A program made the position numbers and the translations under genes. The notes under the pieces were generated by a model that did no database searches, was not told the DNA's origin, and was given only the letters and a program-made list of their open reading frames with translations. A stretch of DNA of 63,997 nucleotides, the filler included, from Bonamia ostreae (Eukaryota), in the NCBI GenBank assembly GCA_040357525.1. It is 11 parts of 11 records of this genome, joined end to end, with 100 filler letters (N's around TTAATTAATTAA, not from the genome) between each part and the next. Parts side by side here need not be neighbours in the genome. Positions count along the whole stretch, not along the records: positions 1 to 5,839 come from JBDODL010000161.1; 10 more parts are not named here. One strand, written 5' to 3'. This document shows, in pieces, positions 324-13,819 of the stretch (the stretch's first letter is position 1; each line of letters begins with the position of its first letter).

Positions 324-3300
324 TTATTGGTTCCCAGCTATCAATTTTTCGTATTTCATCTTCATCATCGCCACATGAGACACCGGTTGTTTCTTTGTAA
401 TCAGAGACGATTCATCTAGTTTTTCAAAACCTTTAACTTTAGTCTCTTTATGAATTGGCGAAGTAAATTGCAGCCTCTTTGCTTTGATTTTATCATTAAG
501 GTCTTCTCTTGATGTTCTTTGCGCGTCTTTCGATTTGTTCCTCCCCTTTCTCGGCGAAAAAAATCGTCCCAAACCCTCCAAAACAGAACTTCTGAAAGTT
601 TTTTTGACCGAATTGCGTTTTGTGTTCGTCTTTATGAGTTCCGGTTGAGCGCTTTCAACTCTTACAATGTTCAATTCTGCTCTGATACCTCCCTTCTCAA
701 ATCTAGTTTGCAAAGCCAATTTCGTGTTGTGTTTATGAATGGTGACGCGGATGAATGTCTGCAACGTGTCCACTGCTTCTTTTTCACAGTTTTTTTCGAA
801 TTTCTTTAATTTTTCCATGCCCTCTTTTTTGCAGAAAAGTCTGTTTCGTCCGATCAACGCCTTTTTGTTGTAAAGTTTTTAAAGGTTCTTTTGATTTTAT
901 AGCAAGTTTAATGTTCTGTGTAATTTCAAATTTAAACATCAAATCCAATTTTGGACACCAAAAGCTCAACAGCGTCTTTATCCGACTTCTCTTCTTTAAC
1001 TAGAAATCCAAATTTCTTTACAAAGTCTTTTATTTCGTAGTGATGGCAATATCCTTTTCTTCGATTCTCCAGATGATCAAATATTCCCGTGTTTCCAAGC
1101 TGCTTCAATACATATCCGTCTTCAAACTTTTCTGGATGGGACTTCTTATTGCTTTTTATACATTTCACATAACTAATTTTTGTTTTCTGAAGCATTTTTA
1201 TTAGTCTCTCAATACGGTAACGGAATTTCTTGCTGACAGAACTGTTTCTTCTCTATTTTTGGATTAATTTTTGATATCAATTTTTGGAAGTTCTTTTTAA
1301 AACAAAACATTCGATCGAAGGATTTGGTCAGAAACGACTTCCTTTAAAAAAGCCCATTCCGATTCGGCAACAATTGTTTCAAAATTAGCGCTAATTTTGT
1401 TCTTGTTTTTAACTATCATTCCTTCAAAGTTATATTCGACTGGTTCTGTGAAGTGCTCAATGACAATACTATTCATCCTAGATTTCTTTAGACGGAAAAA
1501 TGGCAGTTTTTTGAAGTTTTCTTCGATTTTTATTTGCAGCGAATTGTCGCTCGTTACTCCAAGCGAAATACTCTCTTCAAAAGAATTGAAAAATCCCCGA
1601 GGGCCATCCAAAGCTTCGATTGCTCTCGAGTTGGCATCATTTAAGTTTATTTTGGCTTCTTCCAGAATGCTTTCCTCACACTGAAACTGTTCTTCGTTGT
1701 GCAACATGTCTTTTTTGAAAATAAGGTGCAGTTTTTCGCTGACAAAATTGGCGCAGAGTTGTTCAAAAGAATTTCTAGATAAGTTTTCGAAACCGAAAAA
1801 GTCTAAAAAGTTCACTTGAAGTTCTTCTTTACTACTTTTCAACTTTGGTTCGCGACTTAAGGACTTATTTCTTGTGCCAGAATTCTCATTTAAAGTAGAT
1901 TTCTCGTCGTTCTCATTCATCATGTTACGGTTGCAGCTGTTTATTGAGTTGATATCGTCTTTAATAAAGTCTCGCGAAGTCCGGGGATTGCAGTTTGTTT
2001 GATTTTTTATATGCAAAAAAGAATTGGTTTTGGCGACAATCCATCCGAACAGAGTTTTGTAAAGGAATTGATTAATGAAGTCTCTGTTTTCTTTGGCTTC
2101 TTTGGACGCCAAAGGACTACAAAAACTTTCTCTTTTGGCGACAACGATCGTTTTCTCTGAGAGACAGGTCTGCAGATTTTTTGGATCAATCTTAAGAAAT
2201 TTGGCCAAATTTTGGATTTTAGCCATTTCTTCTTTGCTCTTGGAAAAATTTAAGTTTCCGAGCAAAAGAATGCAAGAAACGAGCTTGAAGACGTTTTCAA
2301 TTTCAGATTGAGTGAATCCGATTGATTCCATCGAATTTAATAAAATGTCGAAATTTAAAGCGTCATCTTCGATGAAACTGTTTTTGAGATCTTTGAGATA
2401 GTTGAAATTATATGGGTTTTTAGCTCCGAAAAGTTTTTCTTTCTGTTTTTTTTAGAATTTTTAAAGTTATAAATACTTTTAAAGAATTTTTGTTGTGGCT
2501 GCAAAAATGTTTTTAGGCAACAAGAATTAAAATCGTGACCACTAAAATGTCTGCTAAAATTTGACTAAAATATTATTAAAAACAATAAAATTAAAAAAAA
2601 AACTAAATTAGAAAGACGCGAAGAAGCCAAAAACTCATAAAACAGGTTAAAATTGCGTTCTTCTTGCGGATTGTCCCTCAAAGTCAAACGATTCGTTTCC
2701 AGAAGATAAACTTCGATTTCAGCCGACGACATTTCTTCATCCGAATCAAGAAATATTTTTGTAAATTTGCCGAAACGACTGGAACTGGCATTTAGCGACG
2801 TTTTGGCGTTTCCAAACGATTCAAAAATTGGAATGTTCTTTTCTATTTGTTTTCCAAGCGAATTCGAATCTTTTGATTTGCTTAAAAAGTATTTCAAGCA
2901 ACAATCGGCCATAAAAGTTTTTCCCGAACCACTTTCTCCACTTTTTATCAAAAATTGTTTTGTTGCTTCGATTCATTTTATAGACAATAAATAATAAAAT
3001 AGTATTTTTATCGAAAAAATTTGTTGCTACAAACAACAGATTGGTTTTTAAACACGGAAACCTAAAAATAATAGATTGATTCTGCCCTTTGCTCAACTTT
3101 TCGTACACATTAAGCGCTAACTTATTAATATGAGCCCTCTTTTCAGTCGAGTAATTTTTCGCATCTGTCTCGTTATCGTAGAATTTGAAGGGGTTTACTG
3201 AAATTAACACAGACGCAAATTCCATCTTTCGAAAAATTATTAAATTATTTTCTTTTCCCACTAAAAAGAGGTTAAAAATATTATCGAAATACTTATAAAA

Positions 3301-5066
3301 ACATATGTTTGTCTTCGCTTAAATTCATCTCTGAGATCTTCGAGAACAGCTATTTTATTTAACTTGTCTATTTCCATCAAATCTTCGCTTTTTTTATTTG
3401 CTTTGTTTTTCTTTCCGAAAACGATTTTTGATTTTTGCTTTTGGTCAATTCTGGCATACTCACTGATATTTTGAGAGTAATCTGACATGAGACTTTGAAC
3501 GACATTTAAGTAATAAAATAAAGTTTGTTTTTCTAACACCGAAAAGGGGAATTCAACTAAGAGAGGAGTGAAAATAGTGCTTAAATTTTTTATGCCCATT
3601 TTGTTGATTTTGCTGTTTTGACTAACGCGGTTCGTCAGGTCTAAAAAGGATTTGAGAACTATTCTTTTTCGTCCCTTTTAATTTTTGGTGACATGTAAAT
3701 ATTAATAAGCTGAATGTTATTGTTATTGATGACAATTTTTTTCAAATTACGAAATAATATTTTTTTAATCTTGCAAAGACAATTCGTACAGTTTGAACAG
3801 ATTTTAAAGAAAAACAGTAACAGATTCGTACAATTTTCGAATTTCGGTTTTATCTTTGGTGTCAATGTCGAAAGGTATAGAATATTGAGGGAAAATTTTT
3901 TGCATTTTCTCGATTTCCGATGAAAAGGATAAATTGCCTAACCAAAATTTTATGCAACTGGCTACTAATTTGCAAGTCAAGTTTCCTGTGTTTTGTACTC
4001 CCATTTGTTCGTAAAAATGTACCAAGTCTTTTAATTGGAATGAATTTGGAGATGTTCGGAAAATTCCAACCTTTTTTAATTAATAAAACGATTGAAATGT
4101 TAAATCGCAAAAATTAAATTTTTTCAAATAAAACTGGATAAACGGTAAAAATCAAGTTTTGGAATTAAAACAAAGTTATTTTAGAACAATTACAAAAAAT
4201 GACATCTAGATTTCGATCAAAACCACAAAACCAAAAAATTACAGAAATACAAAATGCAAAAATGAGACTAAAAATGGAATAAATTTTCTCTAAAATACCT
4301 CGCATTCGCATTTTAACTCGAAAAAAAGGTGTTTTAGTTTTTCAAATTGATCAACATCGATTTGTTCAGAACGGAAAAATTCCAAAATCAAATTTTGTAT
4401 AAATAATGCCACTTTGTTCGCATTCAGTATAAAATCGATTTTGTTTTTAAATGTTTTCAGACATTTTACGAGAGATTTTGATATTTTTCCCGCCATTTTC
4501 TTTACGTTTCTGTTCGGAAAGTTTTTGAGAACTTTGCAGCACATTGACATTAATTTACTTAATATGTCTTTGTTGCTCGTCTAATTTTTTAAATTGTATC
4601 ACTATCTTAGCAAAATTTTTAAACAAATTTAAATTATTGTTGTTCAGCAATTTTTAAACTGTGCTGGATTCAAAAGTTTTGGATATATCCTCTTCAGGGA
4701 GCAGAAAAAATTCTGGAGAGAAGAAGTCAAAACACTTTTGATCTTGTTTCATTAACACAAATTTGGCCATGTTTGCCAAGAAAACAGGATCAATCACGTT
4801 CTCGAAAGTTTCGCCGTCTCTTTGAATTTTCGTATAATAAAATTCCATTTGTCTTGTGTCCATTCTTTCCAAAAATGCTTTTTTCTTTAATTGAAAATTT
4901 TTTATTTTCGTAATCATCACATAAAATATTAAAGTTTCACCACTTCATCTCCATTTAGTTTGACGAATTGCTTTTGGATTAGTGTCAAGATACGTTTTGT
5001 GTTTTCAAATGCGGTAGAATTTTCATTCGAAAACTCTAAATCTTTGGCGAAAGTTTTGTTATCCAT
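324..5066 (-). CDS. Multi-exon RhoGAP-myosin fusion (N-terminal RhoGAP domain, myosin motor, one IQ-like motif, short tail)
   Basis: GT-AG splicing links ORFs 4654-4920, 4290-4550, VGIFRTS (RhoGAP Arg finger, ~4056), 3804-4025 and 3261-3599 (NKMGIKNLSTIFTP followed by EDLMEIDKLNKIAVLEDL). Motor motifs follow: LISVNPFK, GESGSGKT, FGNAKT..NASSSRFGK, DFFGFE, NSFEQLCAN, YVKCIK, IGRNRLF. Confidence 0.85.
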
Positions 5067-5229: not shown

Positions 5230-5839
5230 GGTAAAAGTGGATAATATCCCCTAAACCAACCCTTATGGATTTATAAAATTATAAATGGCCATTTTTCATA
5301 AAAATTATAGGAATTTAGAATATAATATGAACAAATTATTGACAATAATTTTATAAAAAATATTTTACAAATATTTACAAATGAGATTAAATTTGGATGA
5401 AATATTGGCCGGATGATGATCTACAAATTTGTCGCAGAAGAATAAAATCTGGTCGATTTTTTATACTTAATAACTTGGCAAAATCCATCAAATGCAAGAA
5501 TTCCAAAGAAAACATGGATTTGTATAAATCAGTTAAAACCATTGATGAGTTTATCTGGAAATGCAAGAAAAAGAGATGTGGAAAACAACAATAAGTATCA
5601 GAATTTTTTATGCAACAAAAGAACAGAGAAGTTTTGATTCTATTTAATTTTGGCTATTTTTTATTTATACAAAAGAAATCTTTTGAAAGAAGCTCCTTGT
5701 GCGATTAAAATTTATTTTTGTTTTTAGATCACTGCTATGGACAAATTTAATCTCATTTGTAAATATTTGTAAAATATTTTTTATAAAAAAATTGCAATAT
5801 AATGATTATTGTCAATAATTTGTTCATATTGTATTCTAA
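5230..5839 (+). mobile_element. Internally deleted Merlin/ISXO2(IS1595)-like DNA transposon with inverted repeats
   Basis: Inverted repeat arms at 5315-5395 and 5742-5839 enclose ORF 5397-5594 (KCKNSKENMDLYK...DEFIWKCKKKRCGK, with TTISIR in the adjacent frame), resembling the N-terminal Zn-ribbon of Merlin transposases. The right end is cut by the contig end. Confidence 0.55.
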
Positions 5840-5939
5840 NNNNNNNNNNNNNNNNNNNNNNNNNNNNNNNNNNNNNNNNNNNNTTAATTAATTAANNNNN
5901 NNNNNNNNNNNNNNNNNNNNNNNNNNNNNNNNNNNNNNN
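5840..5939. other. Artificial contig linker (N-run/TTAATTAATTAA/N-run). The same core starts at 5884, 11807, 17701, 23594, 29474, 35353, 41223, 47081, 52919 and 58697
   Basis: Identical six-frame-stop palindrome flanked by Ns at ~5.8-kb spacing with slowly decreasing contig length. Separate 100-N scaffold gaps lie near 31327, 37153 and 51638. Confidence 0.98.
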
Positions 5940-6043
5940 ATTTTTTGCAAAACGTAAATAGAAAATGGAGTGATTTAATATTTTTGTAAAAATTTCTGTT
6001 TTCGCAATTTTTGGTATTTCCAAATAGCAAATTTTATCAATAT

Positions 6044-7369
6044 TTATACAATCAGTTCTGCAAAAATAAGGTCTGCCAAAGTAGAACATCTTTTCTTATC
6101 TACGCTTTTAAATTTCTTTCCAAGTGCTTCTTCAATTGCTTCAAAAGTCGTTTTTGTCATGTCCTTTACAGTTTTCTTTCTATCGCCAAATCCCCATTCG
6201 TCAATTCGCTTTCCTGTCTTATGAAGAAGGTCACAAAGCGTTTCCCACATGTCCAACATAACAACGACTTTTTTGGCAAAATCGTTTATGTTTTTTTCTA
6301 GATTTGGACAATAATCGTTTCCGCCCAATTTTATCAAATTTTTCTTGTTTTCTTCGCAAATTGCAAATTTTCGTATTGCTATTTTTCCAAACTTTTTTTG
6401 CAGTTGTTGTTATCAAAATTATGAAAAACGACAAATTTACAATGTTTTTTAAAAATTGTGCAAATTGAAAATTTTGAAAATATAACTGATACTTTAGATC
6501 GTTCCATGTCTCTCCACAAAACTCTCACAGTTTCAATTATCGCACCATATTTATCTGAAAAAACTGAATTTGGCATTATTACATTGTGCACTCCAGGTGA
6601 AAAACTGTTTGATTTATTCAGTACAATATTCGCTCCTTTCGCTAAGTTCTATTTTTACACAAAAAACTTTTAAATCGTTCAAATTAGAATTATTGTTAAT
6701 TGCTTCTACAATCTGTTCATTGTTAACAATGTCTAACAAAATGTACTTCAAAATTTTCAGATTTTTTTCTGTGATGTGATTTTTCATCAAATTGACGACT
6801 TTATCGGAAACTTCTTCGCGCACTGTGAAGAAGTGATTTAAAACGGATTGCAGTCGTTCCTGGTCGTTTGAAACTATATATTTTTCGATCATTATAATGC
6901 TATTTGCATATTCCTCTAAAGGGTGTTGGAGTACTTTTGCTTCCGATATTGATATTTTTTTCTATTTCATAAAAATTTTTGCGCTTAAAAATCACAAAAA
7001 AAATAATTTAAAAATATTTTGTGAAGATTTTAAAAGATTTTTTTGACAATTCAATAAAATCAATAACAAAAATTCAATAAAATCGAAATTACAAAATTTT
7101 GTAATAAAAATTTCTGAAAACCGCATCAAAAAGAATTCCAGCTTTTACTGAAAACTTGTACACATTTTTTTCAAACTTTTTTGTATCCTTTTCACCCAAA
7201 ATGCTTTCCAAAATATTCAAAAGAGACTTTAACATGTCATATCCCTCTTTTCCAAGATATTTTTTAATTATCTTTTACTTGACCAAAAAATAACTGCTTT
7301 TCCAGGCTTTGACTTTGCAAATTTGGTTCCGACATTCTTTTTAGCTCTTAATAAAGTCGATTGTTTCAT
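6044..7369 (-). CDS. TNFAIP8/TIPE (DUF758)-like protein with C-terminal extension, paralog A (spliced)
   Basis: N-terminus MKQSTLLRAKKNVGTKFAKSKPGKA|IIKKYLGKEGYDMLKSL...KVYKFSVKAGILFD resembles the TNFAIP8 helical bundle. It is colinear with paralog B. Confidence 0.65.
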
Positions 7370-7835
7370 TAAAAAATTTCTGGCTACTTTTCTAATACGT
7401 TTTCTATTTTATTCCGTCTTTTTTAACATTTTATAATATTTTATAAATGTTTGAAAAGTCTTTGTTCACGGCGCTTTTTTGTTTATTAACGAAATATTTA
7501 TTTTAGTAAAAACAAAAATTAACCGAAAAGAGAAAATAGCTGAAAAATTACCAGAAAATTTTTTACAATGGCAAATGTTATTTTAATTTTTGTCAAACTG
7601 ACAATATGTTGCAATTTAAAAGTTATATAAAAGTTACAATTCTGAAAAATCATTGAATTTGTAGATAAAAGTTATATAAAAGAATAAGTTTAAATATGCA
7701 GAAAAATTGCTCAAATAATTAAAAAGAAAATCGAAACATAAATTAGTGCTATTAAAAAATATTATTTACAGTATTCGAAAGGATAAAATTTGAAGTCGCT
7801 TTGTATAGGATAAATGTATCAGGATTTAATAGCAA

Positions 7836-9263
7836 TCACAACAACTCTTTGACAATCAAATCACCAATTATCTGACACCGTTTGTAGTCAACAGTTTTAA
7901 AATTGAGAGTACTTTTTTGTAAAGTATCCAAAACAGAGATTTCTATTTCTTTCAATATCTTCTCTTTATTATTTTTAAATCCATATTCTACAGACCAATC
8001 GGATATTTTTTCTCCCGTTTTTGCTAAATCTAGACACAAAGTTTCCCAAATGTCAAGCGATTTTATACATTTATCAATAAAATCGAACATTTCCTTCTGT
8101 TGTAGCTGAAAATTGTTACCTTTTGGTAACTTTTCAAGGATTTTAGTGTATTCTGATTTATTTTCCAAAAAATTTTCGCAAATTTTGCTTGATATATTCT
8201 GCTTTTTAACAGAAAACATGATAAATTTTGTATGTATTCAATAATAAGAAAACATTGTTTTTAGCTCTTCTCCAGATATCTTTGACAGCCAAAATAACAG
8301 CACTGTACTTGTCACTGAAGACAGAGTTCGACATTATGACTTTATGCACTCCAGGAGAAAAAGTGTCTGATTGTTCTAATAATCTAATCGTTCCTTTTCG
8401 AAGTACCTTTTTAAAATTTTATTGTTACAGTTTTTGGCTACTAATTATAGAACAATACAAATGCCTCAATGTCATCTTTGTTGCTTTTGGTTTCCAGAAT
8501 TTGTTTAAATTGTGATTTGTCGATTATTCCAGAAATTAATTCGTTCAGAATTTTTAAATTTTTGTCCGTCATATTCCCTTTCATCAAATCTAATATTTTT
8601 TCTGCTATTTCTTGTCTCTTAACAAAAAAATAATCAATGTCTTCAGTGATTATTCTTTCTTCGACGTTTTTATTGACGTGGTTTAATAACACTGCGATTG
8701 TGTTGGTGTATTCCTGTAATGGATGGGACAATGCTTTAATTTTTTCTGGGGATAGTTTTTTCTTTTAGAATATGTAGATTTAGATGATCAATTTTTATAA
8801 AAATTATCGATTTTATTGAATGTGTAGATTGAAATTATCAATTTTTATAGAATATGTATATTTAGATGATCAATTTTTATAAAAATTATCGATTTTATTG
8901 AATGTGTAGATTGAAATTATCAATTTTTATAGAATATGTAGATTTAGATGATCAATTTTTATAAAAATATCATTTTTATTGAATGTGTAGATTGAAATTA
9001 TCAATTTTATAGAATATGTAGATAAAAAATAGTTAAAATACAGCGTCATAAAGCATCGCAGCTTTGATAGAAAATTTGTAAACATTCTTTTTAAAATTTT
9101 TAGCGATCTTTTTGGAAGTCACGCTTTGAATTAATCTACATAAAGATTTAAGCATTTGATATCCTTCGTTTCCGATATATTTTTTAATGATGGTTTCGCC
9201 TGGTTTCGACTTTGCGAATTTTGTCGCAATATTTTTCTTCGCTTTGAAAAGAGATTTGTCCAT
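7836..9263 (-). CDS. TNFAIP8/TIPE (DUF758)-like protein with C-terminal extension, paralog B (spliced)
   Basis: MDKSLFKAKKNIATKFAKSKPG...KNVYKFSIKAAMLYD. Shares HPL.EY, VIM.NSVFSDKY and D.WETLC blocks with paralog A. Confidence 0.65.
8767..9022. repeat. Intronic tandem repeat, ~80-bp unit, ~3 copies
   Basis: Repeated TAGAATATGTAGATTTAGATGATCAATTTTTATAAAAA...TGAATGTGTAGATTGAAATTATCAATTTT inside the first intron of paralog B. Confidence 0.9.
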
Positions 9264-11762: not shown

Positions 11763-11862
11763 NNNNNNNNNNNNNNNNNNNNNNNNNNNNNNNNNNNNNN
11801 NNNNNNTTAATTAATTAANNNNNNNNNNNNNNNNNNNNNNNNNNNNNNNNNNNNNNNNNNNN

Positions 11863-13193: not shown

Positions 13194-13742
13194 TTAATCG
13201 TAAACGAAATCGTCTTTGTAAGCAAAAACGCCGTCTTTGTTAAAGGCGGGTTTGTGTTTGTTGTTTTCCACGACAAAGATGTTTTCCTTTGGGATTCCCA
13301 AATGTTCATTTAGCACAAAGGAAATTTTTTTTTCGTCCCGAAACATTACATAAATTTGCTTTTTGTAAACCGAATTGCATTGCAAATTTTTTCTAAGCAG
13401 TGCCAGAACCGATTTTACAGAAAAGACTAAAAATTTAAGTGGAAAACAAGGCAGTTTGCAGAGATTTGTTATTTGCGTTGCCACTTTTTGATTAAAATTG
13501 ATCCTCTCCAAAAATATTCTGTAGTTTTCTCTAGAGTCCACGCATTTGTTAAGATTGACCGAATATTTGCAGTATTCGAACGGAAGAGTGCAAACTTTGC
13601 AATAAAAGTTTGGCTCAAGCAAATTGCCTTTATCGTCTCTAATTCCTGGAAAATCAGCAAAATTTCGCGCGAAAATTTTGCAAACTCTGTTTTTCGTGTG
13701 ATTATCGTTTAATATTGATTTTTTAAGTAAAAGTTTGATCAT
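13194..13742 (-). CDS. Divergent DENR/Tma22-like (SUI1 domain) protein, intronless paralog
   Basis: FYCKVCTLPFEYCKYS Zn motif followed by a degenerate SUI1-like region. Confidence 0.6.
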   Translation of the reverse strand: MIKLLLKKSILNDNHTKNRVCKIFARNFADFPGIRDDKGNLLEPNFYCKVCTLPFEYCKYSVNLNKCVDSRENYRIFLERINFNQKVATQITNLCKLPCFPLKFLVFSVKSVLALLRKNLQCNSVYKKQIYVMFRDEKKISFVLNEHLGIPKENIFVVENNKHKPAFNKDGVFAYKDDFVYD

Positions 13743-13819
13743 TTTGTGTAAAGTTTTGCTAATTTTAGGATTAAAATTTATGGCGACGATGTTAAAGATG
13801 GCTTAAAATGGAATATTAT

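Follow-up and report, generated by a model that had tools for sequence, protein, structure and literature searches.

An orphan myosin of Bonamia ostreae with a RhoGAP domain ahead of its head: a candidate motorised Rho off-switch

Introduction

Class IX is the only described myosin class in which a motor and a RhoGAP domain occur together. Its members have an N-terminal RA domain and a tail with C1 and RhoGAP, they are reported from metazoans and filastereans only, and they account for the single mention of RhoGAP in the accessible part of PMC3942036. In Myo9b, the motor brings the protein to Rac-induced lamellipodia, where local GTPase-activating protein (GAP) activity is needed, and local inhibition of Rho requires motor and GAP together (PMC7949024). 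The subject of this study is a gene of Bonamia ostreae, a parasite that lives inside oyster haemocytes (PMC6104086), whose product is a myosin with the RhoGAP in front of the motor. The gene occupies positions 324-5066, minus strand, of a window of 63,997 nucleotides (nt), the whole stretch of DNA analysed, from assembly GCA_040357525.1. The window consists of separate contigs strung together with N-linkers (5840-5939, 11763-11862 and onward), and the gene lies wholly in the first of them (G000:C160, 1-5839). The existing NCBI annotation of its product says merely 'motor activity'.

A RhoGAP and a myosin head in one spliced gene

The region comprises one ten-exon gene with a product of 1,248 amino acids (aa). 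The order along the protein is a probable degenerate RhoGAP copy (domain 1), a RhoGAP (domain 2), a basic linker of 20 residues, a divergent myosin motor, one weak IQ motif and a basic tail. In a Pfam scan of the whole protein, RhoGAP was matched at aa 209-336 (E 1.5e-13, 51.3 bits against a cut-off of 24.5) and Myosin_head from aa 393 (E 1.3e-109, 367.9 bits against 33.3), and both therefore stand above the curated cut-offs. This agrees with the initial annotation, made from the sequence alone, which had proposed a RhoGAP preceding the motor in reversed order and whose quoted motifs were all recovered on the minus strand. The decisive piece is exon 5 (3303-3674), which contains the end of the RhoGAP, the linker (3446-3387) and the start of the motor, so that the junction lies inside a single exon with an open frame and no intron in between. 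The surrounding frame, 3261-3677, runs uninterrupted into the head, as had been claimed; on its own it matches Pfam RhoGAP with 29.9 bits (curated cut-off 24.5, E 5.8e-7), and three frames downstream of it match Myosin_head.

Splicing was established with a contig of run X1. Exons 1 to 10, defined by the joints of this contig and by the joined frame, lie on the minus strand at 4941-5066, 4660-4884, 4299-4580, 3816-4070, 3303-3674, 3062-3225, 2604-2940, 1309-2442, 938-1252 and 324-860. The contig measures 3,598 nt, joins all ten exons from position 445 to about 5038 with nine introns removed, all GT-AG on the minus strand, and leaves the start codon (5066) and the final 121 nt beyond its ends. 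Its ten exon pieces total exactly 3,598 nt, so no extra letters are hidden at the six joints whose in-between had been left undetermined. The run is taken as RNA by presumption, and a contig devoid of nine introns behaves as cDNA would; it may also underlie the existing annotation and is in that case not independent of it. The joined exons have no internal stop and read in a frame identical to P0121 (MES1918942.1, Bonamia ostreae). A second annotated isoform, P0001, starts inside intron 1 and differs from the form in the contig. Genome and contig differ within exons at six single bases (1475, 1513, 3630, 3846, 3852 and 4521), which are probably alleles or strain differences. Weighing on the other side, full-length support comes from run X1 only: run X2, with a small share, backs just the last intron, and run X3 has no match on the contig of the gene. 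The gene is spliced and expressed in a single frame, and that the RhoGAP-motor fusion is real can be regarded as virtually certain.

An intact RhoGAP preceded by a probable dead copy

Domain 2 (aa 186-372; 3447-4376, minus strand) is encoded by exons 3-5. It retains the arginine finger R216, whose codon at 4058-4056 is intact in the GIFR motif that had been singled out initially, and the conserved lysine K252. Four further residues serve as binding determinants in p50 numbering, R323, N391, V394 and P398, the Asn/Pro pair, R323 and V394 being named as such in PMC8305018. Two of the four are kept, as N326 and P333, and it counts against an active GAP that G256 and T329 stand at the equivalents of R323 and V394. 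A predicted model of residues 1-474, built from 7 aligned sequences (mean predicted local distance difference test score, pLDDT, 53.6), was used in a fold search, where residues ~183-375 matched RhoGAP and ranks 1-21 were all RhoGAP-fold chains. The best match (Z 12.9, 155 aligned residues, root-mean-square deviation 3.5) stood well apart from the first non-RhoGAP chain (Z 6.6). Foldseek gave no match at E<=0.001, every row listed being a RhoGAP. Judged by the residues it keeps, domain 2 is probably catalytically active as a GAP.

The initial annotation overlooked the ~185 residues ahead of this RhoGAP, and it is here that the gene structure is most informative. Introns a1 (4885-4940) and a2 (4071-4298) share one alignment column, and introns b1 (4581-4659) and b2 (3675-3815) share another; the same two columns hold introns 1 and 2 of P0241, a stand-alone RhoGAP of Bonamia ostreae. 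Put differently, the residues that immediately follow introns 1 and 2 of the myosin gene line up with those immediately following introns 3 and 4, and with their counterparts at introns 1 and 2 of P0241. The alignments were blind to introns, four of four MAFFT modes agreed on both columns, and all introns are in phase 0. When domain 1 was shuffled, both intron columns coincided in none of 240 trials and came within two columns in 2 of them. Common descent of the two domains is thus most likely on the evidence of the shared introns, and domain 1 (aa ~19-185; exons 1-3; 4377-5012, minus strand) is very probably a duplicate of the RhoGAP. The spacing of the model helices (52-64, 75-89, 106-114 and 120-136, against 221-234, 242-256, 285-293 and 298-314 in domain 2) is alike, and an atlas search with residues 1-190 returned RhoGAP clusters at 0.85 and 0.84 behind a viral cluster at 0.87, all of them leads only; with residues 1-480 the atlas gave no usable match.

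Several results speak against a duplicate. Out of about 2,000 shuffles, 8, 10 and 7 reached the scores that domain 1 obtained with three RhoGAP profiles, hhalign gave E 0.029 with a probability of 1.7%, and the pairwise scores against four GAP domains were reached by 0, 12, 31 and 81 of 500 shuffles. No Pfam match was obtained in domain 1 at E<=10, either from the whole protein or from its exons, pLDDT there was mostly below 50, and the fold search matched domain 2 alone. Direct sequence tests are hence above chance but weak, and the strong evidence is the structure of the gene. Leu47 (4872-4870) occupies the column of the R216 arginine finger, and K83 is the one residue left of the six catalytic and binding residues listed, so domain 1 is most likely neither catalytic nor able to bind a GTPase. 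It would in this respect be like the finger-less RhoGAP-like domains of OCRL1 and p85, which derive from RhoGAPs and lack catalytic or binding residues (PMC8305018), with the difference that here the degenerate domain stands in tandem with an intact copy and is carried on a motor.

A divergent motor with a weak neck and a basic tail

The motor (aa 393-1090; 801-3386, minus strand) has its P-loop at 2939-2916, switch I at 2792-2766, switch II at 1803-1786 and an N-to-S change in the relay at 1740-1738. The P-loop GESGSGKT is intact, as had been noticed initially, and switch I (NASSSRFGK), switch II (DFFGFE) and the ERNFNLFY segment read as first described. The motor keeps K482 and T483 in the P-loop, N525, S528, S529 and R530 in switch I and D801, G804 and E806 in switch II, all at positions which we take to be required for nucleotide binding and hydrolysis. 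The N235 position, a Ser in this protein, presumably tolerates change; no paper on switch I mutants was found.

The description of the motor as 'slightly deviant' nonetheless understates its decay, and the following counts weigh against a working motor. Of 98 near-invariant columns 77 are kept, compared with 91-99% in 25 of 27 references and 81-83% in the other two (three fetched references devoid of the standard P-loop string were left out). In a second alignment, 75 of 97 near-invariant residues are kept, while two paralogous Bonamia myosins, C208 and C793, keep 82 of 87 and 62 of 69, respectively; since the paralogues are better conserved, the decay is specific to the RhoGAP myosin gene. 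The changes include N to S527 in switch I, I to F802 in switch II, A818, S822 and H826 in the relay and R to K995, and they concentrate in the relay helix, near the SH1 region and near the actin-binding region. Loop 2 is very short, the shortest of 12 rows compared (P0136 has a long insert there), and its basic residues are kept. An insertion of ~52 residues before switch II (1828-2001, minus strand), likewise overlooked at first, brings that segment to 72 residues; in the other 145 myosins measured, its median length is 20 and its maximum 24. Overall, the residues retained make it fairly likely that the motor cycles on actin.

The neck consists of the IQ-like motif LQTFIRVTIHK (aa 1103-1113; 732-764, minus strand), aligned to IQ1 of solved myosins. 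The single motif of the initial annotation is thus present, but it is degenerate and has no Pfam IQ match at E<=10. Beyond it lies a basic tail of 132 aa (327-722, minus strand) with an isoelectric point of 10.5, 32 K+R and 14 D+E, in which no Pfam domain was found.

Motor identity is 27-31% to every class tried, including 29-30% to class IX and 31% to paralogue C208. The protein forms the longest branch in both motor trees (3.81 and 1.79), of 30 rows (quick tree only) and 16 rows, and both leave it unplaced, with no labelled rhizarian myosins among the proteins used. In approximately unbiased (AU) tests on the motor, union with class IX (p=0.215), with C208 (p=0.242) or with C793 (p=0.509) was in no case rejected, so that the phylogeny by which independence from class IX was to be judged does not exclude kinship from the motor alone. 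The C208 myosin, in a model without RNA support, has introns at the positions of two introns of the motor; these shared positions may be ancient and are not counted as evidence. The C208 gene (G000:C208, 1871-4090) differs in having introns of 19-25 nt in 9 of 11 cases according to its model, those of the RhoGAP myosin measuring 56-228 nt, and its P-loop reads GDSGSGKT.

Relatives and origin of the fusion

In HMMER searches of 1.84 billion representatives, the closest relatives of the front part were three motor-less RhoGAPs, P0239, P0240 and P0241 (P0240 nearly fills a contig of 994 nt and may continue beyond it). These three form a clade with the myosin in a GAP tree of 16 rows (support 100/99), in which there are flagged long branches and two roughly pieced-together composites from Bonamia; they share with it the loss of the R323 equivalent and differ in having a single GAP and no motor. 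On the same tree, a grouping of the protein with five myosin IX GAPs was rejected (AU test, p=0.00123). The clade with a paralogue and the rejection of the myosin IX grouping argue that the pairing of motor and GAP is, on the GAP evidence, apparently convergent with class IX. The independence from class IX that had been suggested at the outset accordingly gains support on the GAP side, where the introns common to a stand-alone RhoGAP point the same way.

P0241 is like the myosin in the two introns and in a C-terminal motif as well. The 11-residue VAMMKMKYEKL (aa 1233-1243; 342-374, minus strand) matches the last 11 residues of P0241, whose last exon is taken from its annotation. A match as good was obtained in 1 of 5,000 shuffles and in none of 249 other proteins, for a window picked after the match had been seen; windows of 13 and 15 residues gave 16 and 126 of 5,000. 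The motif also resembles what we take to be the V-x-x-L-x-x-x-F-E motifs of actin-binding proteins. Its presence in both proteins suggests a P0241-type gene with the motor lodged in it, after the GAP and ahead of the C-terminal motif. The opposite course of events is conceivable, P0241 being then a fusion that lost its motor. A possible history, pieced together from introns and trees, is that the GAP exons of a P0241-type gene, a stand-alone RhoGAP of the parasite itself, were duplicated in tandem and then joined to a myosin motor, perhaps by insertion of the motor between GAP and C-terminal motif, and that the front copy afterwards lost its arginine finger.

What tells against a conserved protein is that no orthologue was found in any search. 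Residues 1-420 matched nothing but the protein itself in a set of 5.8 billion (5,849 candidates), and residues 1-474 gave 11 HMMER matches among the 1.84 billion representatives: the protein itself, 6 RhoGAP-only proteins, 3 myosin-head fragments and 1 repeat protein. No orthologue emerged for the motor region (185 matches of 8,000 scored; the best non-self match among the 120 listed, of plant class VIII, has 29% identity) or for the largest exon (257 matches of 4,748, the 120 listed being mostly of classes III and IX). Exon 5 had 592 pattern matches among metagenome contigs, 0 of them confirmed. These absences come from thinly sampled, fast-evolving lineages and are not proof. Among 252 fetched proteins, a set biased toward what the searches return, 49 combine a motor motif with RhoGAP, the two isoforms of this gene being the only ones with the GAP in front. 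The architecture search consequently yielded no other protein with GAP before motor among those retrieved.

The literature gave a concordant picture. Neither a myosin with an N-terminal RhoGAP nor a paper on a Bonamia myosin was found among open papers, CyMoBase and some supplements lying outside the scope. RhoGAP is absent from the two searchable supplement files of PMC3942036 and appears only in a legend in the available part of PMC2375034. PMC5583752 lists 287 orphan myosins from 69 species and notes Rap-GAP orphans; its text, apart from the domain drawings, which were outside the scope, has no RhoGAP. The main text of PMC11069148 does not mention myosin, which turns up in its supplements in gene ontology (GO) rows only. 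The domain order is apparently undescribed, and the protein is so far a single-species orphan rather than the lineage-specific class that had been proposed.

Comparison with class IX, class III and other orphan myosins

Like Myo9a and Myo9b, the Bonamia protein carries a motor and an arginine-finger RhoGAP in one chain, and the logic of local Rho inhibition (PMC7949024) is likely the same. The two differ in layout, given that its GAP region is N-terminal and tandem, 20 residues before the head, whereas that of class IX lies in the tail after the IQ motifs and C1. Neither RA (PF00788) nor C1 (PF00130) was found by Pfam at E<=10, the large loop-2 insertion typical of class IX is missing, the GAP belongs to another clade and the host is not a holozoan; the protein, with its long branch, is not grouped with class IX in either motor tree. 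Class III (Myo3a) has a comparable plan of N-terminal signalling enzyme, motor, short neck and tail, and a tail actin-binding motif (THDII) is needed for tip localisation of Myo3a (PMC7947357). Here, a RhoGAP pair takes the place of the kinase, the protein kinase domain being missing by Pfam, the motor is not grouped with class III, and an actin-binding motif in the tail is a guess. Orphan myosins of Amphimedon and Capsaspora also combine a motor with a GAP for small GTPases, but theirs is a C-terminal Rap-GAP of another family (PMC5583752). The protein most likely works like class IX, yet stands outside it.

Proposed function and rival explanations

By analogy with myosin IXb, the protein may be a motorised Rho off-switch carried by a Bonamia-lineage orphan myosin, a reading that we favour by a little. 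The single head, anchored on actin or membrane by the basic tail, would use ATP to gather at dynamic cortical actin, and domain 2 would there speed GTP hydrolysis on one of the parasite's own Rho/Rac GTPases, a task that in animal cells falls to myosin IXb, with domain 1 as a non-catalytic structural or regulatory partner. One head with a weak IQ would need a second anchor, which could be the basic tail or the C-terminal motif, as THDII is in Myo3a. Two Rho-type GTPase genes (C3892 and C452) are present in the same genome, presumably of this type on the motifs we assume to be diagnostic. RhoGAP matches occur on seven contigs of the genome and myosin matches on six, several of them short; no RhoGAP match was seen on another myosin contig among the six.

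The off-switch reading has to be weighed against a slow or uncoupled pseudo-motor, which would bind actin and nucleotide and move little, making the protein an actin-anchored rather than a travelling RhoGAP. The poorer retention of near-invariant residues than in C208 and C793, the longest branch in both trees, the changes in the relay and SH1 region, a short converter and the single weak IQ all lean that way; but all residues assumed to be essential for hydrolysis are kept, including the switch I Arg/switch II Glu pair, as are the basic residues of loop 2, and we consider the pseudo-motor unlikely, though worth keeping in mind. Distinctly less probable is a Rho-effector myosin, whose GAP-like domains would act as Rho-GTP sensors that switch the motor or determine its location, with little GAP activity. 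Such a role could be read from the N-terminal position, shared with the class III kinase that alters motor properties (PMC7947357), from the finding that OCRL1, which has no finger, still binds RAC1-GTP (PMC8305018), and from the two binding determinants missing in domain 2. That same domain, however, keeps finger and Lys, and domain 1, with one of six residues (K83), is nearer to p85 than to OCRL and probably binds no GTPase.

Two remaining explanations are both very improbable. One is a rearranged class IX myosin, inherited, acquired from an animal host or lying on a contaminating contig. Class IX is the sole described class with both domains (PMC3942036), its members are among the motor matches, and the motor test did not reject the grouping. 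The GAP tree, by contrast, largely refutes it on that side; RA, C1 and loop-2 insertion are missing, the motor is no closer in identity to class IX than to other classes or C208, and a Bonamia RhoGAP has introns in common with the gene. The other is a merger of two adjacent genes by assembly or annotation. The genome is fragmented (7,503 contigs), repeats flank the gene on both sides, and an RNA contig that spans two genes may stem from more than one transcript; against this stand the junction inside a single open exon, the one RNA-type contig with all nine spliced joints and pieces adding up to its full length, and the agreement of genomic and RNA-type contigs but for the 6 single bases.

A further-reaching version of the off-switch reading is put forward tentatively, as possible rather than probable. 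The gene might found an undescribed haplosporidian myosin type, in which an active motor was inserted in a tandem-duplicated RhoGAP gene and the pair of dead and live GAPs set against the head couples motor state to Rho inactivation.

Flanking repeats and other features of the window

A dispersed repeat at 5315-5839, just upstream of the start codon, has inverted arms of 53 nt (96% complementary) and 35 nt (97%) and matches on 12 other contigs; it resembles a small non-autonomous DNA transposon. Downstream, at 1-173, a fragment belonging to this repeat family lies in opposite orientation, so that the gene is bracketed by two copies. From this fragment exits a high-depth RNA-type contig (1-437, plus strand, GT-AG intron 195-317) that covers 114 bases at the end of the myosin coding sequence. 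It is a possible antisense transcript, its strand resting on the intron ends (the contigs are unstranded).

Genes past 5939 are not true neighbours of the RhoGAP myosin gene, the contigs having been joined artificially. At 5940-8800 (G000:C161) lie two similar short genes in tandem, with 40% identity over the matched part and no convincing Pfam match. A frame at 13197-13802 (minus strand) matches the N-terminal part of DENR (E 1.5e-8), and, of the 16 long window frames scanned, the other 15 gave nothing in Pfam at E<=0.001.

Significance

This is a sequence-level case from one species, and unusual domains are frequent among orphan myosins (PMC5583752). If the founding-type reading is true, the gene would represent a second independent motorised RhoGAP, outside Holozoa and in reversed order, with assembly steps readable in its introns. 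The shared introns provide an unusually clear record of domain gain by a myosin, and the protein allows asking whether a GAP must ride the tail or works beside the head. Finding an apparently independent version in a rhizarian parasite that has few myosins suggests that evolution arrived more than once at carrying a Rho off-switch on actin. For the parasite, this myosin is a candidate controller of its cortical actin.

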